Source: Candidatus Krumholzibacteriota bacterium (GTDB lineage: Bacteria; Krumholzibacteriota; Krumholzibacteriia; Krumholzibacteriales; Krumholzibacteriaceae). Taken from it: a stretch of 64,000 nucleotides of DNA. How positions within the stretch are numbered: the stretch's first letter is position 1; the number at the start of each line of letters is the position of its first letter. The DNA lies in assembly GCA_016933255.1 (NCBI GenBank), contig JAFGBF010000015.1, positions 79,725 through 143,724 on the forward strand. Reading direction: 5' to 3'. The notes under the pieces were generated by a model. The model was not told the origin of the DNA and did no database searches. It worked only from the letters and a program-made list of their open reading frames with translations. Of this stretch, positions 20,374 through 55,452 are shown in pieces. The translations under genes were made by a program, and so were the position numbers.

Positions 20374-20874
20374 TCATTGAAAGCGGAATCTCAATTCGTA
20401 GTTGCCGATTCCGATAAGATCATTATTATTGATTTTGATCTTATGGATTTCCTTCCCGTTCAGGTTCGTTCCGTGGCGGCTGTTGAGGTCTTCCAGAAAA
20501 TATGATCCGTTTTCATTTATTATCTGGGCATGCTCGGGAGAGACGAACGAATGATCAAGACAGATATCGCAATCTACGCTACTGCCAAGCAGCGTAGATT
20601 TTTTACTGATCTCTATTTTGAGTCCTGAAAAACATCCATTTGTTATTTCCAGGACTGCTTTGCTTTTTTGCCCGTTTTTTTTCTGATTGCTGTTTTTCGT
20701 TTTATGAATATGTCCGCGTGTAGAATTTTTTGTCGTCACGTTATCACCTTTCATCAATTGAAGCCCAACCACTTTATTGTCATCAAGGTGTCGCGCAGCA
20801 ACCCGCATAAATCGTACCACAGAGAGGAAAAGGGACTGCAGCTGATCATTTGTCCGGGAAAGATGACCGGGCAT
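20374..20874 (-). CDS. FHA-domain protein (phosphothreonine-binding), last gene of the exosortase locus.
   Basis: C-terminal FHA fold (LLGSSVDCDICLDHSFVSPEHAQIINENGSYFLEDLNSRHGTNLNGKEI). Basic N-terminal region. Confidence 0.7.
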   Translation of the reverse strand: MPGHLSRTNDQLQSLFLSVVRFMRVAARHLDDNKVVGLQLMKGDNVTTKNSTRGHIHKTKNSNQKKNGQKSKAVLEITNGCFSGLKIEISKKSTLLGSSVDCDICLDHSFVSPEHAQIINENGSYFLEDLNSRHGTNLNGKEIHKIKINNNDLIGIGNYELRFRFQ

Positions 20875-21131: not shown

Positions 21132-22562
21132 TTACTTTTTCTTCTTGGATGACCTGAAATCCTCAGGGTCGATCTCGTGTTTTTTCATCAGATCGTGAAG
21201 AGTAGGCCGGCTTATCTTGAGTTCCTGCGATGCGGCTGAGACATTCCCGGAGAATCTGAGTAATACATCGATTATCATTCTTTGTTCCAGGTCTTCACGG
21301 GCTTCTTTGAGAGAGACGCCCGCCTCCGGAGGAATACGGGCAGGAGCGGATTCTGCCTGTTTATTTTTTTCGTCTTCAGGGCCGGGAAAAACAAGGTCCA
21401 TGTCCTCCGGCTGAATGATCCTTCCAGATGTCATGATCACAGCTCTCTTGACTCTGTTTTCTAGTTCGCGTACATTTCCGGGCCATGAGTGGCTATAGAG
21501 GACATTGCGCGCCGATTGGCCGAAGGCTCTTACATTTCTTGAGAACTCGGAATTAAAATGATGAAGGAAATGCATCGCAAGCAGGAGTATATCCTGCCCT
21601 CTGTCACGAAGAGGAGGAAGGGATATATTGATCGTGTTTATCCTGTAGTAGAGATCTTCCCTGAAAGTCCTTTCGCCGATCATCTTCGAGAGGTCCCTGT
21701 TAGTAGCGGCGATCACTCTGATATCGAGCTGTATCTGCTGCTGCCCTCCCACTCTTTCTATTACGTGGTCCTGAAGGAATCTGAGGATCTTGACCTGAAG
21801 AGCCAGGGGAAGTTCGCCGATCTCATCGAGAAAGATAGTTCCTCCCTCAGCGATCTCGAATTTTCCCGGTTTTGAAGAGACTGCCCCTGTGAAGCTTCCT
21901 TTTTCATGGCCGAACAATTCGCTCTCAAGCAGATTTTCAGGTATTGCGCCGCAATTGATCGGTATAAAGGGTCTGTTCTTCCGCGGGCTTCTCGCATGTA
22001 TAGCCCTTGCTATAAGCTCCTTGCCGGTCCCGCTTTCACCGGTTATGAGGACCGATACATCGGTGGGAGCTATTTTCTTGACGGCGTCGAATATATCAAG
22101 CATACCCGCAGACATGGATATTATATTTTCGAATTCGTGTCCGCTCCCGGGAGAAGACTTCAGTCTGGTTATCGTCGATTCAAGGGAGTGTATGTAGGAA
22201 GCCCGGCTCAGAATAACGCGGAGTTCATCGATATCCACCGGTTTTGAGTAGAAATCGATAGCGCCCGACGCGAGGGCTCTTAGAGCGTTTTCCTTGTAGT
22301 CGTGGCCTGTTATTACGATGACCTTGATCTGCGGGTCTATCTGCAGGGCCATCTCGAGGATTTGAAACCCCTCAAACTCATCCGTGTCGCCTGTCAGAGA
22401 AAGATCCAGGATCATCAGCTGCGGCGATTCTTCTTTTACAGCATTGACAGCCTCTTCTATGGTGCGGGCCTTGATGACCTCATATTTGTTTTTAAAAGCC
22501 CATTCGAGTTGTTTGAGGATGGTCTCCTCGTCATCGACGATCAAAAGTCTGGGTGATCCCAA
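21132..22562 (-). CDS. prsR: Sigma-54-dependent response regulator (NtrC/AtoC class), PrsR-like.
   Basis: REC domain (LLIVDDEE...D). AAA+ sigma-54 interaction domain (GESGTGKE, GAFTGA) and C-terminal Fis-type HTH. Lies immediately downstream of the PrsK-like kinase. Confidence 0.8.
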   Translation of the reverse strand: MGSPRLLIVDDEETILKQLEWAFKNKYEVIKARTIEEAVNAVKEESPQLMILDLSLTGDTDEFEGFQILEMALQIDPQIKVIVITGHDYKENALRALASGAIDFYSKPVDIDELRVILSRASYIHSLESTITRLKSSPGSGHEFENIISMSAGMLDIFDAVKKIAPTDVSVLITGESGTGKELIARAIHARSPRKNRPFIPINCGAIPENLLESELFGHEKGSFTGAVSSKPGKFEIAEGGTIFLDEIGELPLALQVKILRFLQDHVIERVGGQQQIQLDIRVIAATNRDLSKMIGERTFREDLYYRINTINISLPPLRDRGQDILLLAMHFLHHFNSEFSRNVRAFGQSARNVLYSHSWPGNVRELENRVKRAVIMTSGRIIQPEDMDLVFPGPEDEKNKQAESAPARIPPEAGVSLKEAREDLEQRMIIDVLLRFSGNVSAASQELKISRPTLHDLMKKHEIDPEDFRSSKKKK

Positions 22563-22577: not shown

Positions 22578-24683
22578 TTATTCTGATCCGGTTCCCGGCA
22601 GTATAATCGAGACAGAAGCGCCTTTTCCAGAAAGATTATCGATCGATATAGTGCCTCCATGTGCTTCTGCCATCGATTTACATAGAGCAAGGCCTATGCC
22701 CAGGCCGTTTTTTCGGGTCGAGCTGAATGGCTTGAAAAGGTCGTTTTTAATATAGTCAGGATCGAAGCCCTTTCCAGTATCAGACACATTGAGTCTCAAT
22801 CCGAATGGATCTTCCGAAGTAAGGCGAACCGATATCTTTCCTCCTCTCGGTGTTGCTTCTATCGAATTGAGTATCAGGTTCTCCACAATTCTTTCAATAG
22901 CGGATGGATCGATATCAGCGATTATCTGTTCAGATGGAGAATATTCAAGAGTGATATTTTTAGATCCAGCCATCGGCACAAGCTGTTCTATCTTTTCTCC
23001 TACAAGCGATACCGCTTCTGTCCGTACTCTGTTTACGGCTCCTGAATATTTGTGAGCGTTCAGAGAATTGATCAGGCTCTGCATCCTCTCTATCGATCTT
23101 TTAATCGTTATTATTGTATCTTTCTGAAATTCCTTGTTTTCCATGTTTTCTCTTGCGTTTTCAGCGGTAAGAGAAAGGATCTCGACGGTGTTTTTAAGGT
23201 CATGGATGACGAATGACGCGAACCGGTTGAACGATTCGATCTGTTTCGATTCAAGGAATCTTTCCTCCATAAGGAGGTTGTCAAGGGTGATAGCGGCCTG
23301 GTCGGCGATAGTAGCAAGGAAACTTCGGTCTTCTTCGCTGAAGGGAGCTCCTGTATCCTTTCTGCCCAGAGCTATAAAGCCCTTACACTCCTCCCCGTGG
23401 CCGAGAGGCAGAGCAGACTCGATCCATTCAGGGATATTTTCCGTATCAAGCTCGATTTTTGCTTCTGTCGAGGAGTGTTTCCTCCTGCCGGATCTTTTGT
23501 TAAATACCGTCAATTCGTCAGCTGTACACAGTTCCATCAGCCTGTTTGACGTCTCAGGAGTCCAGTCATCGCCTGTTGCTCCATAAGACGCTTCGATCCC
23601 GTTGTGGATATCGACCCATATGATGCCTCTCTGGACGATCATCGTCTCACAGAGCGATCCGATCGTGTTTGAGAGGAAATCATCTATTGTAAGGCTCGTG
23701 GCCATCAATCTTGAGAAATGACGCCACTCCTTTCGATAATTATAATTCTCAAGATAGAAATTATCATTCAGGAATATTCGAAGCTTTCTTCTCGCCCTTC
23801 CCGACATTCCGACGGCAAGCAGAAGAAATATGATAAAAATCCCTAAAACATAAAGATGGAATCTGTCATATGACATTCCGGCCAGGGCCGAGATCCACGA
23901 TATGATGGCAATCGATATAAAGTAGAGCCCGGCTACCACCACCGACACGGTCGATGATTTTTCTTTCAAAACAGGTGTCCTGATCTCGAATAGATTGTAT
24001 CTCGAATTCGCGTAGATAAAAGTTGTAGTGATGAAAATTATTCCGCAGGTTTCGACTGTCAGGAAACGCCGGTCGACCGAAGATAACGATAAAATCCGGC
24101 TCATTACCACGAAATTCAGAAATGATGCGGTTATTGTGCCGAGCATCGGGTATTTGAGAGTGACCTTGCCCTGGATATTTGCTGCTCTGTATGTGTTTTC
24201 CATGAAGTAGAGATAGCATACATTCACCAGAAGGAAAAAGATCCCGAACCCTTTGCCCAGCCAGGTAAAGACGATCTGATAAAAATATCCGTTTTCCTCG
24301 AAGGATATGCTTCTGATGATATAATGAAGCGGAGTGATGAGGCCGATCGCGGAAAAAATGATCAGAATGGTCAGAATCCCTGTGATCCTGTTTTTCAGCG
24401 GGTTATCTCCACGGTTCCGTGCGAAGAAATAGAAAAACGGAAGACCGAAGGCAGGGGATAATAGAGCGGCCACAAGCAGCAGTCGCAAAAATACCTGCGC
24501 CTGCTCGGGAGAATCCGCCCTTAGCAGAAGTCCCTGTGCGGCGGTGAAGAAAGCCAGGATCAGCGTCGATGGGATAAAGAAAAGTTTCTGATAATTAAAA
24601 CTTCCTCTTGTCAAACCTGCCCACAAAAGGAGGACAAGCAGTCCAGATGCAGTAAATGACAGTAGCGGAGCAAACAGGGTCAT
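22578..24683 (-). CDS. prsK: Sensor histidine kinase with a long polytopic N-terminal domain; PrsK-like (exosortase-system associated).
   Basis: About 300 aa of TM helices, then a cytoplasmic region. HisKA box FVIHDLKNTVEIL. HATPase_c (GLGIGLALCKSMAEAHGG). 701 aa and gene context match TIGR02916-type PrsK. Confidence 0.7.
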   Translation of the reverse strand: MTLFAPLLSFTASGLLVLLLWAGLTRGSFNYQKLFFIPSTLILAFFTAAQGLLLRADSPEQAQVFLRLLLVAALLSPAFGLPFFYFFARNRGDNPLKNRITGILTILIIFSAIGLITPLHYIIRSISFEENGYFYQIVFTWLGKGFGIFFLLVNVCYLYFMENTYRAANIQGKVTLKYPMLGTITASFLNFVVMSRILSLSSVDRRFLTVETCGIIFITTTFIYANSRYNLFEIRTPVLKEKSSTVSVVVAGLYFISIAIISWISALAGMSYDRFHLYVLGIFIIFLLLAVGMSGRARRKLRIFLNDNFYLENYNYRKEWRHFSRLMATSLTIDDFLSNTIGSLCETMIVQRGIIWVDIHNGIEASYGATGDDWTPETSNRLMELCTADELTVFNKRSGRRKHSSTEAKIELDTENIPEWIESALPLGHGEECKGFIALGRKDTGAPFSEEDRSFLATIADQAAITLDNLLMEERFLESKQIESFNRFASFVIHDLKNTVEILSLTAENARENMENKEFQKDTIITIKRSIERMQSLINSLNAHKYSGAVNRVRTEAVSLVGEKIEQLVPMAGSKNITLEYSPSEQIIADIDPSAIERIVENLILNSIEATPRGGKISVRLTSEDPFGLRLNVSDTGKGFDPDYIKNDLFKPFSSTRKNGLGIGLALCKSMAEAHGGTISIDNLSGKGASVSIILPGTGSE

Positions 24684-26212: not shown

Positions 26213-27097
26213 TCAATTCAGTCTGTTTTTCATCCTTTGCAGGAATATTACTGTTCCTCCTGCTGTTATAAGATATATGGATATCATCTCAATGACTGAT
26301 GAGACGATGTAATTGTGAATAATAAAATCGGGAGAGAGCCTTGTGGCGATCAATGCCGATTTAATGCTGATAAATGTCGTCGGGACCGTGAGAATGAACG
26401 GGATAAAAACAATAAAGAATGTCGTAGCTGGGCAATTCCAGGCGATACTTATGCTTACCCTGAAAGATCTAAAGAGGTTTGAATCGTAAAGCAGGATTGC
26501 CGGAGTAGTGTACAGGAATAACCCCTGAATAGCGAGGGCAACAGCCATACTGACGGCATAAACGGTATTACCCGCAATCGGGCTCAGACTGGCTCTGAAA
26601 TTTCCCGCGAGAAAAAATACGAGAAAGATGAAAAGGGAAGCAAATAAAGAGATCAGAAACAGCTGAAGATATTTCCCGAACGCAGCCCGGAATGCCCCGG
26701 CAAACGATAACGACCTCCCGGTGATCCCGCTGTATATGAGGACTGTCGTTGCACCCTGGAAAATTATATTTATGAATATTTCAACGAATATATCGACGCG
26801 GTCAAGAATGGGCTGCATCAGTACGATATGATCCGGAAAATGACCGAGGTCTGAGCTGGAGAGGCCGCCTATAAAGAGAGCCCAGAAGGATGATGAAGGC
26901 GGATCGAGGCTTGAAAGATATGAGATCAGGATGCCGAGATGGAGGATAAGAAAAAAGAAAGATGGAACGGCGATCCGAAAATCTTTCAGGATCGATACAG
27001 AAGTGTGGAATGTATTTATGGTTTCCTTGAATCCTCCGGCATAATCAAACCGTTTCCCAGGAGCTCCGCCGTCAATAATGAGTCTTTTCGACATCAA
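26213..27097 (-). CDS. Polytopic integral membrane protein of unknown function (about 8 TM) inside the exosortase operon.
   Basis: 294 aa with strongly hydrophobic segments throughout. ATGA overlap with the EpsI stop. No recognisable catalytic motif. Confidence 0.45.
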   Translation of the reverse strand: MMSKRLIIDGGAPGKRFDYAGGFKETINTFHTSVSILKDFRIAVPSFFFLILHLGILISYLSSLDPPSSSFWALFIGGLSSSDLGHFPDHIVLMQPILDRVDIFVEIFINIIFQGATTVLIYSGITGRSLSFAGAFRAAFGKYLQLFLISLFASLFIFLVFFLAGNFRASLSPIAGNTVYAVSMAVALAIQGLFLYTTPAILLYDSNLFRSFRVSISIAWNCPATTFFIVFIPFILTVPTTFISIKSALIATRLSPDFIIHNYIVSSVIEMISIYLITAGGTVIFLQRMKNRLN

Positions 27098-27786
27098 TCC
27101 TCGTTTCTTTGCTCTACAGGCGATGCTGATTTCAGGGCTGACATTATATCGGGGCTTATTCTTTCGATGAATCTCAACATCGTTTTTTCGGTCTTTTCGT
27201 CGCCTCCCGGCCTAACGCCTGTAGAAAAGCGGATAAACGACGCAGCCTGGGGGCGGGAAAGAAGTGTGTTCTTCATCTGATGATATTTCAACGAAAATTC
27301 ATCGGGGATGGCTTTACCGTTCATACTGAACCAGTAGATGACCAGCCTGTGGGATTTCCCGTCTGTTATTACCAATCGCTTGACGCTTTCCAGCTCATTG
27401 TTGAGATTTATCTCGATCCGGTCTTCCTTTATGATATCCCAGCCGGCACCAGGGTAACAATGTTTTGGAGAATGGATCTGCGAATTTTCCTGCTGCCGGG
27501 CGAAATACCCGAGAAAGAGTTCTATCTTTATCCCCGTTTCTCCGGTATATGAACGTACAAGCGTTGTATCTGCTCCCAGAACCCTCAGAGATTCGATCCC
27601 GATATAATAGTCATCGGAGAGATACGATCCCGTCTCTGCCGGTATGAGGCTGAAATCCGGCAAAGGAGCCTCTTCAATATCTCTTTTACGCAATCGGTGC
27701 GTATAGATCGTCAGCAATAGGAGTATTACAACAATGATGACCAGGCTGTTCAGTTTTATTTTATCCATTTCAATATCCTGATACAA
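27094..27786 (-). CDS. epsI: Exosortase-associated EpsI-family protein.
   Basis: N-terminal TM helix then a periplasmic domain. Overlaps the exosortase gene end; the likely true start is ATG 27768 (MDKIK). EpsI is canonically adjacent to exosortases. Confidence 0.55.
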   Translation of the reverse strand: MYQDIEMDKIKLNSLVIIVVILLLLTIYTHRLRKRDIEEAPLPDFSLIPAETGSYLSDDYYIGIESLRVLGADTTLVRSYTGETGIKIELFLGYFARQQENSQIHSPKHCYPGAGWDIIKEDRIEINLNNELESVKRLVITDGKSHRLVIYWFSMNGKAIPDEFSLKYHQMKNTLLSRPQAASFIRFSTGVRPGGDEKTEKTMLRFIERISPDIMSALKSASPVEQRNED

Positions 27787-28610
27787 AGAAGAAGCAGTAG
27801 GAGCCCGGCTGCAAAGACTATCAAGCCTGAAATCTCATGAATCGTTCCATCAGCAAATTCGGGTCCTATCGTGTAGGCTCCCAGTGCTGTTACAGTCAGG
27901 CGGATCGCATTTGCTGCTATCGCTACAGGTATCGATAACGCCACGAGAATGACGTTTTTCGTTTTAGAAAATCCGGAAAAAATCGTAAGAATAACAGCGA
28001 TCGTAACCATAGTCATAAGGGAACGCAGTCCGCTGCAGGCGGCGACTACTTCCAGGGTATATCCGGGAAGATGGAGTATATTGCCTTTTCTTATGACGCT
28101 TACTCCGGTTGACTGGAGGATATAAGTGCTTAACCTGGCGCTGAAAAGCTGCATAGGGAAGGTGAGTCTGTAGTAAATGATATATGGCAAAGGAACAGCC
28201 AGCACCAGAAAGAGGACAGGGAAGGCGACAATTCTGAAGATCCCCGATCCCATAAGAAAAAGAACGCTTCCCAGTATAAGGAGCGGAAAAGATATGCGGG
28301 ATGAAAAAAGCTCTGAAGCTGCCGTGCCGGCTACAAGCAGCAGAGCTGATACAAATATTATTAAAAGCCCCGTATAATAGTATCCTCCATCTGGATTTTT
28401 TCTCAGTTCCCTGCGCCGTTTCCAGAGAATAAAAACCGAGACGACAGGGATAACGATCCCGTGCTGATAATTCGGGTCATCTATCCATTGCCTGAACAGG
28501 CTGGTAATGACAGGGGAATACATTACGGATATCAGAACCAGACTCATGCCGAGCAGTATTCTTTTAAGGAGCAGAGTGCTGTTCCCCTCTTGCCTGGATA
28601 TATCGGACAA
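27756..28610 (-). CDS. xrt: Exosortase (EpsH/Xrt family transpeptidase).
   Basis: 284 aa, about 8 TM. Conserved active-site motif VVAACSGLRSLMTM (Cys and Arg). TTG start with an AAAGGAG RBS. Confidence 0.8.
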   Translation of the reverse strand: MSDISRQEGNSTLLLKRILLGMSLVLISVMYSPVITSLFRQWIDDPNYQHGIVIPVVSVFILWKRRRELRKNPDGGYYYTGLLIIFVSALLLVAGTAASELFSSRISFPLLILGSVLFLMGSGIFRIVAFPVLFLVLAVPLPYIIYYRLTFPMQLFSARLSTYILQSTGVSVIRKGNILHLPGYTLEVVAACSGLRSLMTMVTIAVILTIFSGFSKTKNVILVALSIPVAIAANAIRLTVTALGAYTIGPEFADGTIHEISGLIVFAAGLLLLLLCIRILKWIK

Positions 28611-28703
28611 CCTGTCTCCTTTATTACGATACGACTTAAGTACTGTAGAATCTTAAAGGGTGCTGCCCCGCGTTGGCAAGAAGAATGAGCCGGTCAGACT
28701 CCG

Positions 28704-28740
28704 CAATAAAAAAACGGACGCAGGTGATTCTGCGTCCGTT
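28704..28740 (-). terminator. Strong rho-independent terminator between the PEP-CTERM substrate genes and the exosortase.
   Basis: Perfect 11-bp stem AACGGACGCAG/CTGCGTCCGTT with a 6-nt loop. On the minus strand it is followed by TTTTTTTATT. Confidence 0.75.
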
Positions 28741-28767
28741 CGAGGCCTGCAAGAAAAAGAAGTGTAA

Positions 28768-29475
28768 TCACGTTTTCTTTTTCTTTCTCAGAAGAGGAGT
28801 TATCCCGAGAAGTCCCAGGCCCAAAAGGCTGAGTGTGCCAGGTTCAGGAACCGCAAAACAACTTGAATCGTGGGAATTGGGGCTGACATAGCATTTACCG
28901 TTTGAATCCATCCCTATCGCGTCAAAGTTTACATAATCGAACCCGCTGACAACGATATCGAGTAACACTTCATCTCCCCAACCCGGTTCATGGATCCATC
29001 CTTCTTCGTAATGCCACGCCTTTGCCATAGAGTTATTTATTCTTCCGGCATCATAAAAATTGAAATTTTTGATGCTCGGAAGCATAGTCTTCACATACCA
29101 GTCCGGAGCGGCCGCAGCCAGTCCGGGGTCGCCGTAGTTGTAGAATGTGTTGATCTCGATTCCGTTGATCCATACAGTCCCGGATTGTCCTGTCGGAGTA
29201 TTTATGACGACAAAGACATCCATATAATCATACGCCGGGGGAGAGGTCACCAGATCTATAGATGGAGTCACTTCGGGAAGTGTTTCCCAGTACCCGACAA
29301 CTTTCAGCTCAAAATTGGCTGATGTAGAGATCCATGAGTCCTCATCCTCGAGGGCATAATTTGCGTAGTAGTCAGAGCCTGTAATATAGGTCTGAAGCCT
29401 TGGGACCGCTGAGGCAGAATCGGCAATTAGAGACCCGGCCAATACCGCTACGGTCAGAAGTAAAATCTTTTTCAT
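28768..29475 (-). CDS. PEP-CTERM sorting-domain protein, paralog B.
   Basis: Signal peptide MKKILLLTVAVLAGS. C-terminus VPEPGTLSLLGLGLLGITPLLRKKKKT (PEP motif, TM helix, basic tail). GGAGG RBS before ATG 29475. Confidence 0.85.
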   Translation of the reverse strand: MKKILLLTVAVLAGSLIADSASAVPRLQTYITGSDYYANYALEDEDSWISTSANFELKVVGYWETLPEVTPSIDLVTSPPAYDYMDVFVVINTPTGQSGTVWINGIEINTFYNYGDPGLAAAAPDWYVKTMLPSIKNFNFYDAGRINNSMAKAWHYEEGWIHEPGWGDEVLLDIVVSGFDYVNFDAIGMDSNGKCYVSPNSHDSSCFAVPEPGTLSLLGLGLLGITPLLRKKKKT

Positions 29476-29516
29476 TCGTATCCTCCGCACACAGTTTATA
29501 GTAATCAGCATTATCA

Positions 29517-30230
29517 TTATTTTTTCTTTCTCAGAAGAGGAGTTATCCCGAGAAGTCCCAGGCCCAAAAGGCTGAGCGTGCCAGGTTCAGGAACAGGATA
29601 GAAAGCTGTCGCATCGCAATCCCACGGATTGGTGTAGGTCACGCCTCTCGCGTCGAGTCCTATAGCGTCAAAATGTGTCCAGGAGAATCCCTTGGTCACG
29701 ACTTTAAAATCGATTTCCTGGCCATGTCCGGGAAGCTGAGGTGTACCGTCAATGTGGTCATAATAGTACGCCTGATGCTGGTTGTCGAGACCACCCTCAA
29801 TCTCATAGAAATTGAACTTTCCAAAGAGAGCCGGAGGAGCAATCCGCAGATACCACGCAGGGTTTGTTTCGTCAGGCACCGCATCGCAGTAGTTATAGAA
29901 AGTGCTGATCTCCACTCCGTCTATCCAGACTGTCCCCGACTGGCACATCGGGACGCTGATCGCGATCCAGGTTCTCATCTGATCACGTTCCGGATAAGCT
30001 GAGCCCACATTCAGAGGGGAGTCCGGATTAATGTCCTCTTCCCAGTACCCCACGACCCTCAGGTCGAATTCCTGCGAATATGTGACAAACGAATACTGGT
30101 CGAGCAGGCTGTGGAATTGTTCGTATTCTGAACCAACTATATAGGTCTGGAGCCTGGGGACCGCTGCGGCAGAGCCGGTAAAGAGCGCCAGAACAAGCAA
30201 AATGCCGGCAAAAGAAGTGACTTTCTTCAT
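29517..30230 (-). CDS. PEP-CTERM sorting-domain protein, paralog A.
   Basis: Signal peptide MKKVTSFAGILLVLALFTGSAAA. Identical C-terminal VPEPGTLSLLGLGLLGITPLLRKKK. Shares internal motifs with paralog B (VPRLQTYI, TVWI.G.EI.TFYNY). Confidence 0.85.
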   Translation of the reverse strand: MKKVTSFAGILLVLALFTGSAAAVPRLQTYIVGSEYEQFHSLLDQYSFVTYSQEFDLRVVGYWEEDINPDSPLNVGSAYPERDQMRTWIAISVPMCQSGTVWIDGVEISTFYNYCDAVPDETNPAWYLRIAPPALFGKFNFYEIEGGLDNQHQAYYYDHIDGTPQLPGHGQEIDFKVVTKGFSWTHFDAIGLDARGVTYTNPWDCDATAFYPVPEPGTLSLLGLGLLGITPLLRKKK

Positions 30231-30298
30231 ATTTTTCTCTCTCAGGTGTCGGAATCGGTTATAATAAGCGAAATTATCCTATCTATGCCGGTAGTACC

Positions 30299-30313
30299 GC
30301 AATCTGCGTGCCA
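30299..30313 (-). promoter_or_regulatory. Sigma-54 (RpoN) promoter driving the PEP-CTERM gene pair.
   Basis: The minus strand reads TGGCAC-gcaga-TTGC, a perfect match to the -24/-12 consensus TGGCAC-N5-TTGC. It sits about 70 nt upstream of the ATG at 30230. Confidence 0.75.
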
Positions 30314-30393
30314 TTTTTGAAATCATTTGTATCATGTTATATAACAACATGTTATTGGTCTGCTCTATTGTTTCTGAAAGGGAGCCGGCAAAA

Positions 30394-30429
30394 GTGTAAA
30401 AGATGCCGACAGTCAGGCACCTTTTACAC
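30394..30429. promoter_or_regulatory. Inverted repeat GTGTAAAAG-N18-CTTTTACAC. Candidate enhancer (UAS) for the sigma-54 promoter and/or terminator hairpin of the upstream gene.
   Basis: Perfect 9-bp arms with a nested TGCC/GGCA. It lies 80-115 bp upstream of the -24 element, across an AT-rich bendable spacer, and about 25 nt downstream of the stop of the 30452..31054 gene. Confidence 0.5.
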
Positions 30430-30451: not shown

Positions 30452-31054
30452 TCAGCGGCTTTTTCGGGTTCTTGTCGATCCAAGCGATCCGAACGAGGAA
30501 CTTCTGCTTCTTCTCGTGCTTGAACTGAATCTTGATCCAAAACCTGGGCTGTTCCTCATCGAGCCGCGGCGTACGCTGGTGTTTATGTTGATATTTACAG
30601 GGTTTACGGTCTGGCGCCGATTTCCTCCCCGGACTATGCTCGAGGGCGAAGCCATCATCCCCGTGCCTCGAGAAGCTCCATTTCTCGTCCTGCTTGTCTG
30701 AGGCATAAAGGAGCCGGATATTCCTTTATGGGTATAGCCGGAAGCTTTGAGATCCGCACTCCATCCGGTCCTCTGCTGGCGCATATTTCTGTTTCCTGCC
30801 AGCGCTGCCGGCCTTCTGAACTCTTGAGATGACCTTTCGATCCCGGTCGACCAGCCGGCAGGCCCGGTTTTTCTTGAACTGATTACAGATGAACGGGTCA
30901 CAGCTTTCTGCCAGTCTCTGTCGACTGCATCGCTCTGGTTTTTAGCCCACTTTGAGAATTCACTGTTTTCCTTTGCGCAGGCATCGGTGCCGGCAAAGAA
31001 CAACGGATTTATTACAATAACCAGCAACACTGCGGTTGCGATCAAGTAACGCAT
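30452..31054 (-). CDS. Secreted, Arg/Ser/Gly-rich low-complexity protein of unknown function.
   Basis: Clear signal peptide (MRYLIATAVLLVIVINPLFFAGTDA). The rest is basic and disordered (SRFSSSTRRSRSSSFGSLGSTRTRKSR). Preceded by a near-consensus sigma-70 promoter. Confidence 0.5.
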   Translation of the reverse strand: MRYLIATAVLLVIVINPLFFAGTDACAKENSEFSKWAKNQSDAVDRDWQKAVTRSSVISSRKTGPAGWSTGIERSSQEFRRPAALAGNRNMRQQRTGWSADLKASGYTHKGISGSFMPQTSRTRNGASRGTGMMASPSSIVRGGNRRQTVNPVNININTSVRRGSMRNSPGFGSRFSSSTRRSRSSSFGSLGSTRTRKSR

Positions 31055-42242: not shown

Positions 42243-44603
42243 TCATCTAAGAAGGACGGCCTTGCGGCTTATCGTTTTTCCGCCGGCCTTGAGCCTATAG
42301 AAATATACTCCGCTCGAAAGATTTTCCGGGGTCCACCTCACAGTATGTTCCCCGGCGTCAAGATCATCGCAACGGAGGCATTCCACTTCCCTTCCAGCGG
42401 CGTCATAGACGCGAAGGTCGACCCGGCAACTATTTTTCAGGAAAAAGCAGATCTCCGTTCCCGGGTTGAAAGGGTTGGGGTAGTTCTGATAAAGGGCGGT
42501 TACGGCGGGGATATCCCCGGAATCAACGGTAAGGGTATCTCTGTAGAACTGCCGGTTATGGGCTGTAACTGTGATTATAAGCGAGTCGACTTCGTCCGTA
42601 ACGGGTACCGACAATGGTAGTGACAGACTTCCTCCGGGCCCGGCGATTCCCCTGCCGTAACAGATGCCGTTCCAGTACAACGCGCCGAGGCTTCCCTCTT
42701 CTTCTGTTTCTACCGGGAAAGAGACCGTACTCCTCTCGATACTGGCGTTGTGGGCCACCACCATCTGGGAAGGGGTATCGGTCCAGCCGTCCATCGCAGG
42801 GTCTCCGAGCAGATTAAGGCAGTAGAAGCACCACCTGTGGGCCCCCGATTCATATTCATCCGGGAGATCGACGAACGCGGCTGTCTCGTCTTTTGAGCGC
42901 TGGTTGGCAGATCCGAGGTCCGTATATCCTTCCGTGAAGACTGCGTCGAAAAACTCTCGCTGGAAGTGATGGGATGGGCCGTTTGTCGATCCTTCCGTGA
43001 ACCATCCGTAGCGGGAGTTGCCGACAAAGGCGGAAGCGAATCTGTTTATGCCAAGGAACTTTTCCGCTATACAGTCTAAATCGAATGCCCCTGCGTAACA
43101 ACCGTATGTATTTACGATAGGGAATTTCGCCGTTATCCCGTCATTCGTAAAGTTGGTCTCGTTGACATCGCTTATCGACAACCTCATCACTGAATTTGTG
43201 TTGGAATGACCTGCATGGCATATCCAGTTTGTTCCGGCGTTGACCTCTGCGTAGACGTCAGATTTGTACCAGTATTCGAGCTCCCTGTCATAATATTTCG
43301 TGATATTGAAATCCGGCGGGAACCCTGTCGTTGAGAATCCATATGCCGTACAGGTGCCGACCAGCTGATCCATTTCGTCTCCGCCATATGTCAATGGATC
43401 GCTGAACATCTCTTCACCGAGCAGGAGAAGATTTCTTGACTGTCCCGTTACGGGAGACTCCTGATAGCTGGCAGTCTTGTAAATGAATGTCGCCGCCTCC
43501 TCCTGTGAATCGACCGGTGCTCTGCCTATCGAGATATCGGAGAAGAGGTCTTCCTCTCCAGCTTCACCCCATTCATCGTCGGAATCCGTGTTCCAGTCTC
43601 CGTCAAGGGCGGCATAGTAGATATCCGCCGGGATGTCGGGATCATAATAGACCGACGATGAATAGACCGAGCAGGACAACCCTCTGTACGGGACAGTCGC
43701 GGGAGCTCCCGGATTCCCGTCTCCGGCAAGCAGGACGTGGGTTATTCCGCTGGCGGCGTATTCTTCTATGATCGCGTTACGGATCCTTTCCTGTGTGTCA
43801 TTTCCCGGAAAAGCACCGATAATATATTCGACTGTCATGATCTCCGAGCGCATTCCCCTTCTTGTATAGAACTCCTTCAGAGGAATAAAATCATTTTCCA
43901 GTATCGCCTTTGTTATTATCAGATATTCGTATTCATCACCCGCTGGCAGTATCGGCCCACTTATTCTGTCATAAAAAGCCTCCGCGGAAGGATTGTCGAT
44001 CAGACCTTCCAGATATTTTATTGTGGGAGCATCGGAACGCAGTAAAGACAACGCTTCAGAACTTTTTTCGGAAGGGATAGTCTCTACGATCACTTCTACT
44101 TCGCTGTAATATCCGACCCGGTTTGCCGAAGGGAGAAACCCGGCGGGAGTGAAAGACCCCGTTACGATAGGGTGCCCGCGGTAGTAGTGCGTCCTCGGTC
44201 CCGAGGATGGCGGGTGGATCCATTCTGCCGATGAATATGCGGTCTCGTTGTAGAGAAAAGCGCTTTCCGAACCTTCCGCCTCTATCCCGGGGAGAGGGTG
44301 CTGTCTCGGGCGCAGGATAATCTCTTTATCGATATCTTTCCATCCCCGGCGGTTGAACGATATAGCCGACGCGGCTTCTCCGGGAGGAAGAAGGATCCTT
44401 ATCCCCCGAAATGGAAAACTCGGACCGCCTGCTTTTCCCGCCTGAATCGTTGAAGGGAAGAAGAGGAGGGAAAAACCATCCTGAGAAGTCTCGATCCGCG
44501 GTTCGCTGAAACGATAGGTTACAGAGACCTGCCGTGCTTTGGTTGAAAAAGGAAAAGAGGCGATAAGCAGAGCCGAAGCTGCTACAAGCGGCAATCTCTT
44601 CAT
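42243..44603 (-). CDS. Secreted cysteine-peptidase-like protein (gingipain/C25-like, clan CD His/Cys dyad) with a T9SS C-terminal sorting domain.
   Basis: The C-terminus YPNPFNPGTEICFFL...LRVYDAAGREV...SGVYFYRLKAGGKTISRKAVLLR matches the Por/T9SS CTD pattern. The core has CHAGHS and YGCYAG motifs compatible with a clan CD dyad. Signal peptide present. Confidence 0.55.
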   Translation of the reverse strand: MKRLPLVAASALLIASFPFSTKARQVSVTYRFSEPRIETSQDGFSLLFFPSTIQAGKAGGPSFPFRGIRILLPPGEAASAISFNRRGWKDIDKEIILRPRQHPLPGIEAEGSESAFLYNETAYSSAEWIHPPSSGPRTHYYRGHPIVTGSFTPAGFLPSANRVGYYSEVEVIVETIPSEKSSEALSLLRSDAPTIKYLEGLIDNPSAEAFYDRISGPILPAGDEYEYLIITKAILENDFIPLKEFYTRRGMRSEIMTVEYIIGAFPGNDTQERIRNAIIEEYAASGITHVLLAGDGNPGAPATVPYRGLSCSVYSSSVYYDPDIPADIYYAALDGDWNTDSDDEWGEAGEEDLFSDISIGRAPVDSQEEAATFIYKTASYQESPVTGQSRNLLLLGEEMFSDPLTYGGDEMDQLVGTCTAYGFSTTGFPPDFNITKYYDRELEYWYKSDVYAEVNAGTNWICHAGHSNTNSVMRLSISDVNETNFTNDGITAKFPIVNTYGCYAGAFDLDCIAEKFLGINRFASAFVGNSRYGWFTEGSTNGPSHHFQREFFDAVFTEGYTDLGSANQRSKDETAAFVDLPDEYESGAHRWCFYCLNLLGDPAMDGWTDTPSQMVVAHNASIERSTVSFPVETEEEGSLGALYWNGICYGRGIAGPGGSLSLPLSVPVTDEVDSLIITVTAHNRQFYRDTLTVDSGDIPAVTALYQNYPNPFNPGTEICFFLKNSCRVDLRVYDAAGREVECLRCDDLDAGEHTVRWTPENLSSGVYFYRLKAGGKTISRKAVLLR

Positions 44604-55027: not shown

Positions 55028-55452
55028 GATGAGACCTCCTTCTCTTCGAGTGAGTCCATTATTGTCCCCTCGGGCTCTTTTCAGCAACCTGTGTGCCAAT
55101 TCCTGCAATAGTGATTTGTGTCAGTGTAAACGTCCTTCTTATAAGGAGATATACGTATAAGCCCCTGTCCGCCCCGCAGCCTTTATATCCTTTTTGAATT
55201 CTCATTATGCCATGAATGGCCTTATAGTGTGTTCTGGTACTGAGATGTCTTTAATTCAACTTCAGGCTGTACAGTAAGGACCAGATAGGGAAGCGGAAAA
55301 AGAAGATGAATAGATCTTTGCCTGCAGGTGTATCGATATGTGGAGCAATCAATGATTGTGGCTGTCTTCAATAACAGATATACTGTGCAGCGGACAGAGG
55401 ACAAAAGGTTTGGGGCTGAGTTTCCATTTCGGCCCCGGAATGGAGGATAGAA

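Follow-up and report, generated by a model that had tools for sequence, protein, structure and literature searches.

A conserved sigma-54-type promoter with a predicted PrsR enhancer box ahead of two PEP-CTERM genes in a Candidatus Krumholzibacteriota bacterium

The stretch of DNA analysed here, called the window, comprises 64,000 nucleotides from a Candidatus Krumholzibacteriota bacterium (assembly GCA_016933255.1, contig JAFGBF010000015.1, positions 79,725 to 143,724 of the forward strand). Its minus strand carries, in this order, two genes for choice-of-anchor-N (coaN) PEP-CTERM proteins, referred to as paralogs A and B, and genes for an exosortase, EpsI, a membrane protein, a TPR protein, the sensor kinase PrsK, the response regulator PrsR and an FHA-domain protein. 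The region ahead of paralog A contains a sigma-54-type -24/-12 element, to which a first-pass annotation had drawn attention, and further upstream a 17-nt box. We consider it probable that this region is the sigma-54-dependent promoter of a two-gene coaN A/B unit, which encodes dedicated PEP-CTERM substrates of the adjacent exosortase and is activated by PrsR. The features that bear on this reading are listed below; family scores are given against the cut-off of the respective model.

30395-30411, minus strand: enhancer, 'PEP-CTERM box' motif 1, TGTCGGCATCTTTTACA; predicted PrsR site, from a position weight matrix (PWM) and conservation
30342-30354, minus strand: block resembling the integration host factor (IHF) core, TAACATGTTGTTA; 8/9 match to WATCAANNNNTTR on the opposite strand
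30299-30313, minus strand: sigma-54 -24/-12 promoter element, TGGCACgcagaTTGC; exact consensus and ortholog conservation
30247-30263: second, inverted box copy in the leader, plus strand TGTCGGAATCGGTTATA, coding strand ...TATAACCGATTCCGACA; reverse-strand PWM match
29517-30230, minus strand: paralog A, coaN PEP-CTERM protein, 237 aa; NF038141 44.5 against 40, PF07589 27.2 against 20.7
28768-29517, minus strand: paralog B, coaN PEP-CTERM protein, 249 aa; NF038141 55 against 40, TIGR02595 20.4 against 16
28702-28741, minus strand: intrinsic terminator; 12-bp GC-rich stem (28741-28712) and seven T
22578-24683, minus strand: prsK, sensor histidine kinase; TIGR02916 311 bits against 300
21132-22562, minus strand: prsR, sigma-54 enhancer-binding response regulator, the predicted activator; TIGR02915 564 bits against 502.6

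On the minus strand, the promoter element reads aaaaaTGGCACgcagaTTGCggtac, with TGGCAC at 30313-30308 and TTGC at 30302-30299. The match to TGGCAC-N5-TTGC is perfect, as the first-pass annotation had stated: all of the 10/10 consensus positions are matched and the GG and GC dinucleotides are exactly 10 bp apart. The element is intergenic and faces paralog A, and the gap of 68 nt between TTGC and the ATG of that gene (30230) agrees with the earlier estimate of about 70 nt. From the position of the element, the transcription start of coaN is predicted near 30287. Exact matches to TGGCAC-N5-TTGC occur twice in the window (30299 and 55084, both on the minus strand), compared with 0.06 expected, and none of 100 shuffled windows contained two of them. 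Matches with one mismatch are not enriched (4 versus 1.8 expected).

For phylogenetic footprinting, 39 loci with coaN homologs of 38-55% amino acid identity were collected from species-representative genomes, which are metagenome-assembled genomes (MAGs) of Krumholzibacteriota and Latescibacterota; counts out of 36 refer to those orthologs that have enough upstream sequence. An element anchored on GG and GC, with at least 8/10 consensus positions and at a distance of 64-78 nt from the start codon, is present in 38 of 40 upstream regions. The element is lacking in two cases: paralog B of the window is internal and has no separate upstream region, and in the triple array of locus L038 no -24/-12 element was called for the first gene, yet the enhancer box is present there. 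When the upstream regions are stacked on the -24 element, they hold zero information beyond -100 and discrete conserved blocks inside that limit. Judged by these comparisons, the window motif is confirmed as a real and evolutionarily conserved sigma-54 promoter of two PEP-CTERM genes.

The outermost of these blocks is the 17-nt box TGTCGGCATCTTTTACA, which is predicted to be an enhancer, i.e., an upstream activating sequence (UAS). It had been overlooked in the first-pass annotation and provides the main evidence for an involvement of PrsR. The box is centred at about -116 from the predicted start and 81 nt lie between it and TGGCAC. The ortholog consensus TGTCGGAATnnTTTACA starts at -97/-98 (overall -96 to -100) in 36/36 orthologs, and the spacer to TGGCAC is rigid within the coaN family (80-81 nt). 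On a PWM that was built from the upstream copies of 33 orthologs, with near-duplicates dropped and the window's own copy included, the box of the window reaches 31.5 bits and is the sole strong match in 64 kb. The same PWM found no further strong match in approximately 400 kb of related loci, and ten matches of at least 9 bits in approximately 1 Mb of unrelated loci (L040-L080, both strands). Its outer symmetry is TGT-N11-ACA. The box also fits motif 1 of proteobacterial PEP-CTERM genes as described, being 17 nt long with TTTACA at the 3' end; the comparison with motif 1 was made by text, and for the 5' half the match is based on the beta-proteobacterial locus L067 and the 120 metagenome boxes listed.

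In L067, CGTCGGATTTTCTTACA is followed by 61 nt, TGGCACatctcTTGC, a further 54 nt and then a PEP-CTERM gene. A metagenome scan with the composite pattern GTCGGNNTTNNTTACA returned at least 120 loci. Among the matches listed, an open reading frame (ORF) with a PEP-CTERM tail follows 49 of the 86 boxes for which this could be determined, compared with 87 of 1,856 (4.7%) for all ORFs of the same loci. The spacers of the 120 matches listed are 62-64 nt (74 matches), 74-76 nt (35) or 85 nt (2), and never 80-81 nt. That the coaN spacer differs from these classes by whole helical turns was considered and rejected, because the differences are about 18 bp for the 62-64-nt class and about 6 bp for the 74-76-nt class. 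Boxes with a 74-76-nt spacer (L084, L096, L129, L137, L142, L148, L164 and L196) are often located 220-300 nt before the gene of a lipoprotein of approximately 270 aa, which ends in ...RGKTDRFVLRFKKPE and has no PEP-CTERM tail. This lipoprotein may represent a second class of PrsR-type targets, or a small gene or RNA between box and lipoprotein gene may have escaped recognition.

The A+T content is 67% over the 81 nt between box and TGGCAC and 74% in the 50 nt nearest the promoter; the window as a whole has 51%. The AT-rich character that had been reported for this stretch is therefore correct, and so are the direct CATGTTAT repeats (plus strand, 30333 and 30348) and TTATATAA (minus strand, from 30344). 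The proposal that the stretch acts as an IHF-type bending region is reasonable in view of the 8/9 core match, but the orthologs do not preserve the CATGTTAT repeats themselves. The feature conserved in the spacer is YAAC-N3-TTG (tAAc...TTg) at -40. The IHF-like block of the window is centred at about -61 from the predicted start, with the match at -41; core matches of at least 8/9 occur in 16/36 ortholog spacers versus 9.3% of shuffles and their positions cluster at -40. Between box and IHF-like block, 22/36 coaN orthologs carry in addition a TGGGG-N5-7-CCCCA palindrome at -70 to -54 from TGGCAC (in the collection L001-L039; e.g., 5850-5866 in L007). It is missing in the window, where the corresponding positions are 30383-30367, and in the closest relatives, and may be the site of a second dimeric factor.

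A second copy of the box lies in inverted orientation in the predicted leader. It is centred at about +32 relative to the predicted start, and the centres of the two copies are 148 bp apart. In 33/36 orthologs, this copy is found at a fixed position, from +45..+47 to +68..+70 counted from the T of TGGCAC. Its scores are mostly 6-25 bits (two are at 0.4 and 2.6), while forward-strand controls reach at most 2.9 bits. The conserved leader block TATAA-N6-CCGACAC is the second box read on the opposite strand; CGAC is invariant across an alignment of 26 leaders, and TGTCG-N6-TTTACA is matched exactly at this site in three orthologs. The leaders of the 120 metagenomic boxes listed do not contain the inverted copy (best score 4.9 bits), and it was therefore rejected as a general trait of PEP-CTERM boxes. 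An RNA element in the leader was also considered and rejected, as Rfam E-values were at least 3.9 and RNAalifold predicted 0 pairs for the 26 leaders; the leader of the window folds worse than its own shuffles (z +1.4). The leader copy most likely represents a second DNA site for PrsR. This reading is favoured because the PWM match occurs at a fixed position, the explanation by RNA structure fails and a sigma-70-like site is not found on the minus strand of the window leader.

The family of paralogs A and B, with approximately 126 clusters, occurs exclusively in Krumholzibacteriota, Latescibacterota and unclassified MAGs. An NCBI protein with 100% identity to paralog A comes from a Candidatus Krumholzibacteriota MAG. 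The start codon of paralog B overlaps the stop codon of paralog A as TAATG, by which the two genes are predicted to be translationally coupled. The AlphaFold2 model of paralog A (pLDDT 85) consists of a beta-sandwich preceded by a signal peptide and followed by the PEP-CTERM helix. Fold searches in the PDB gave weak matches (TM 0.2-0.33) to Ig-like domains of adhesins and biofilm-matrix proteins, which would be compatible with a role at the surface or in the matrix without deciding the matter. Some relatives have arrays of three coaN genes (L038, 4337-7498; L201, 1760-4465), in which each copy, or the first and second, has its own enhancer box and -24/-12 element; paralog B of the window has neither.

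The terminator hairpin lies 27 nt after paralog B and is strong (-26.4 kcal/mol, z -5.6). An equivalent hairpin with a T-run follows the last coaN copy in 33/39 loci, with differing stem sequences. Because the terminator follows paralog B, the sigma-54 unit would comprise coaN A and B only, and the exosortase and prsKR genes would be expressed separately from it. A weak sigma-70-like match (28679-28650, 9/12) lies between paralog B and the exosortase gene.

The first-pass annotation had also noted that PrsR, a sigma-54 enhancer-binding protein (EBP), is encoded in the same locus, and the TIGR02915 score leaves this assignment intact. The match spans profile positions 1-444 of 445 and includes the receiver, AAA+ and Fis-type helix-turn-helix domains, with D10, D11 and D53 in the receiver, GESGTGKE as Walker A motif and GSFTGA as contact loop, a one-residue variant of GAFTGA in which F and T are kept. 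PrsR is the only EBP in the window. The cassette order coaN-xrt-epsI-unk-TPR-prsK is conserved in nearly all orthologous loci. The conserved element, the upstream box and the presence of prsKR in the conserved cassette together support the earlier proposal that the promoter is under control of PrsK/PrsR.

From the observed sequence elements, their conservation and their fixed spacing, we infer the following course of events. Phosphorylated PrsR would bind to the 17-bp box TGTCGGCATCTTTTACA, which is centred approximately 116 bp upstream of the start. The AT-rich, IHF-like block near -61 would bend the DNA and allow the PrsR oligomer to reach the sigma-54 holoenzyme, which is presumed to be closed at -24/-12, and ATP hydrolysis by PrsR would open the promoter. 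The transcript would start near 30287, contain an unstructured leader of 57 nt and the two coupled genes and stop at the terminator 28741-28712, while the exosortase-epsI-TPR-prsK-prsR genes beyond the terminator would be separately expressed. The inverted leader box at about +32 would offer PrsR a second DNA site, either as a co-enhancer that helps the oligomer to assemble from sites flanking the promoter or as an operator. As a tentative extension, which we regard as possible but less likely than not, the promoter could be clamped between the inverted PrsR boxes at about -116 and +32. PrsR bound on either side of the polymerase would then form a single looped complex, which, depending on phosphorylation, would assemble the activating hexamer or keep the promoter closed as a downstream operator.

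Several observations weigh against the proposed wiring. With 31 bits against 312, the cassette's TPR protein does not qualify as a PrsT equivalog, and the spacer of 80-81 nt falls into neither of the classes that are common among the metagenome matches listed (62-64 and 74-76 nt). The IHF core is matched at only 8/9 positions, and the leader copy has a degenerate 3' half, with TTATA in place of TTTACA, which makes its affinity for the same protein uncertain. Furthermore, no RpoN family match was found among the window ORFs scanned. An RpoN-box peptide was likewise not found in 1.57 Mb of DNA (the window and the fetched loci), a result that is uninformative because little of the phylum's DNA is covered. 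As no rpoN was found, sigma-54 in this genome is deduced solely from the EBP and the promoters.

Among the alternative explanations, a chance occurrence of the motif without promoter function deserves practically no weight. Short motifs do arise randomly, and the lack of enrichment of the one-mismatch versions is in line with this. An exact match is expected only 0.06 times per window, however, and this one is intergenic and has the right orientation and distance; since the element is kept in 38/40 orthologous regions while the flanking sequences are randomised, a chance match is effectively refuted. It is also very unlikely that the sigma-54 promoter is activated by a different EBP encoded elsewhere, with PrsR serving other targets. 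This possibility is raised by the fact that 64 kb are only a part of the genome, by the perfect promoter at 55084, which has no adjoining EBP gene and indicates that other EBPs probably exist, and by the sequence-based nature of the PrsR site prediction in this phylum. On the other side, the box is of a form that, in Proteobacteria, shares its phylogenetic profile with PrsR (PMC1569441), and a PrsR homolog, DVUA0057, enriched predicted PEP-CTERM targets in vitro (PMC3333781). Moreover, box and prsKR occur together in one cassette in essentially all orthologous loci, and the approximately 400 kb of related loci offer no other strong match to the box.

As a further alternative, the sigma-54 promoter could drive the whole cassette by read-through, which would place PrsK/PrsR and the exosortase in a positive feedback loop. 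All genes between 30230 and 21132 are indeed on one strand with short gaps, the 9/12 sigma-70-like match is the only candidate promoter before the exosortase gene, and intrinsic terminators are seldom 100% efficient. We nevertheless regard read-through as unlikely, given the strong hairpin with U7 directly after paralog B and the equivalent terminators in 33/39 loci, which argue for selection for an insulated substrate transcript; most PEP-CTERM genes are also single-gene units (Haft 2006, PMC1569441). More doubt attaches to the leader block TATAA-N6-CCGACAC, which could be an RNA-level element, i.e., a site for a protein or small RNA, or a nested sigma-70-type promoter with TATAA as -10 element. 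The block is transcribed, with 15-20 nt between it and the ribosome-binding site, TATAA(T) is similar to a -10 hexamer and has a weakly conserved tGAA about 20 nt upstream, and a single-stranded RNA binding site would be invisible to the folding test. We still hold this explanation to be somewhat improbable, because the block matches the enhancer PWM with the same internal spacing on the opposite strand in 33/36 orthologs, three of them exactly, and because a consensus RNA structure is not predicted and the window leader folds worse than shuffles. The promoter scan also found no sigma-70-like site on the minus strand of the window leader, and the presumed -35 and -10 elements would be spaced by about 19 nt. 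We still prefer to read the leader block as a second DNA site for PrsR.

The closest known system was described by Haft et al. 2006 (BMC Biol 4:29, PMC1569441), who found that proteobacterial PEP-CTERM genes are preceded by the 17-nt motif 1, which ends in TTTACA. This motif is followed after a spacer of 62.8 nt on average (maximum 92) by the 17-nt motif 2, a sigma-54 site, and after a further 71 nt or so by the start codon; the phylogenetic profile of the motifs matches PrsR, PrsK and PrsT, and they were found only in Proteobacteria (PMC1569441). The window resembles this system in motif 1, the sigma-54 motif, a spacer (81 nt) below the published maximum of 92, the 68 nt to ATG, a downstream PEP-CTERM gene in a small transcription unit and the PrsK and PrsR equivalogs. 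It differs in its host, Candidatus Krumholzibacteriota, in the fixed spacer of 80-81 nt, in the second inverted box in the leader and in its TPR protein, which is not a PrsT equivalog. In contrast to the many scattered genes of the published system, the regulon here apparently consists of a single substrate family that heads the exosortase cassette.

Two further systems provide experimental parallels. In Aquincola tertiaricarbonis RN12, pepA is RpoN1-dependent and its start site has been mapped (PMC9850573). Like the promoter of the window, that of pepA belongs to a PEP-CTERM gene, has TGGCAC at -24 and an upstream predicted enhancer, and occurs in the same genome as a PrsK/PrsR system; its -12 element is CTGCTT, whereas the window has the consensus TTGC, and RpoN dependence and start site were measured there and are predicted from the sequence here. 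For DVUA0057, the PrsR homolog of Desulfovibrio vulgaris, five predicted PEP-CTERM targets were enriched by DAP-chip (DNA affinity purification on a chip), and the authors state that no binding motif was validated (PMC3333781). Both regulators are sigma-54-dependent response regulators with PEP-CTERM genes as targets, which are predicted ones in the window, but DVUA0057 is plasmid-encoded and has several scattered targets.

In its general layout, the region agrees with the NtrC/NifA type of sigma-54 promoters. This architecture combines a UAS, an IHF bend and a sigma-54 promoter, and the NifA site is TGT-N10-ACA. Common to both are an enhancer about 100-120 bp upstream, an AT-rich IHF-like site midway, a -24/-12 promoter and a TGT...ACA outer symmetry (TGT-N11-ACA here). 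Different from this type, there is one upstream enhancer copy here, and the second copy is inverted and lies downstream of the start. Enhancer sites can lie downstream of the transcription start, as exemplified by the FlbD ftr enhancers of flagellar sigma-54 promoters in Caulobacter. FlbD belongs to another branch of the regulator family and recognises another motif, and the resemblance is a lead only.

The first-pass annotation had claimed that the sequence provides a concrete regulatory wiring for the system. This is supported, although the principle is not new: Haft et al. 2006 (PMC1569441) had already described the wiring of PrsK/PrsR with sigma-54 via a bipartite box. The novelty lies in finding this wiring in a candidate phylum, and among the papers searched none joins this phylum with PEP-CTERM or sigma-54. 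The window and its orthologs, all from Krumholzibacteriota or Latescibacterota MAGs, show that the host range of the PEP-CTERM box is wider than reported in 2006, and the cis-element that was defined for Proteobacteria would be much older or more mobile than reported. The arrangement is a lineage-specific variant with a rigid spacing of 80-81 nt, a fusion of terminator and enhancer in one subclade and, above all, the inverted leader box. Apart from the leader copy, the finding is confirmatory rather than surprising; it provides a coordinate-level regulatory map of a self-contained PEP-CTERM/exosortase cassette in an uncultured candidate phylum. Since the cassette is compact, with one regulator pair, one promoter, one substrate family and one exosortase, it is convenient for heterologous reconstitution, which would allow the study of exosortase sorting and PrsK signalling. 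For the mechanics of sigma-54 promoters, the inverted leader copy with its fixed position is an oddity that can be tested. If true, the two-box clamp would be a built-in switch that is undescribed for PEP-CTERM regulons and uncommon among sigma-54 promoters.

The fusion of terminator and enhancer concerns a further feature, which overlaps the upstream box:

30394-30429, minus strand: inverted repeat with 14-nt arms, GTGTAAAAGGTGCC-N8-GGCATCTTTTACAC; the 3' arm is the enhancer box

As RNA, this repeat folds with -31.4 kcal/mol (z -6.5). Its upstream arm is kept solely in the closest relatives (67-76% identity); more distant orthologs have a separate GC-rich hairpin with a T-run just 5' of the box. 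A role of the repeat as a PrsR palindrome was rejected, because the upstream arm is unconserved beyond the closest relatives and the hairpin follows the stop codon of the upstream gene. For the same two reasons, the repeat probably serves the upstream gene (31054-30452) as intrinsic terminator and is fused with the box, and this fusion in the window's subclade is a lineage-specific feature. The upstream ORF (30452-31054, minus strand) encodes 200 aa, with a signal-peptide-like N-terminus followed by a very basic low-complexity region rich in Ser, Arg and Gly, and has no family match. It is preceded by a near-consensus sigma-70-like promoter (31199-31171) and is kept just upstream of the box in several orthologs.

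The cassette between the coaN genes and prsK contains two further assigned genes:

27756-28610, minus strand: exosortase; TIGR02602 194.7 against 105.55
27094-27786, minus strand: EpsI, a separate ORF that overlaps the exosortase ORF by 31 nt

Together, the two ORFs (27094-28610) are collinear with the fused XrtW and XrtD models and score below both cut-offs; for XrtW (NF038142, cut-off 425), the exosortase ORF reaches 196 bits and the EpsI ORF 83 bits. The exosortase subtype appears to be unnamed, and the same split of exosortase and EpsI is seen in the relative L201. Between epsI and the TPR gene, essentially every orthologous cassette encodes a multi-pass membrane protein (26213-27097, minus strand, 294 aa in the window), for which no Pfam or NCBIfam match was found. 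The FHA-domain gene (20374-20874, minus strand) lies approximately 260 nt after prsR, and its position hints at an input or output by Ser/Thr phosphorylation that is linked to the two-component system.

The second perfect TGGCAC-N5-TTGC element of the window, TGGCACacaggTTGC (55084-55098, minus strand), is located 56 nt before the ATG of a gene (55027-54173, minus strand) for a lipoprotein-like product with a He_PIG Ig domain and without a PEP-CTERM tail. It adjoins neither an EBP gene nor a motif-1 box and is preceded, at a distance of about 55 nt, by an inverted repeat, CTTATA-N12-TATAAG. Finally, the window encodes a PorU-like protein (42243-44603, minus strand) with a C-terminal sorting domain of the type IX secretion system, so that both type IX and PEP-CTERM/exosortase surface sorting are represented in this genome.

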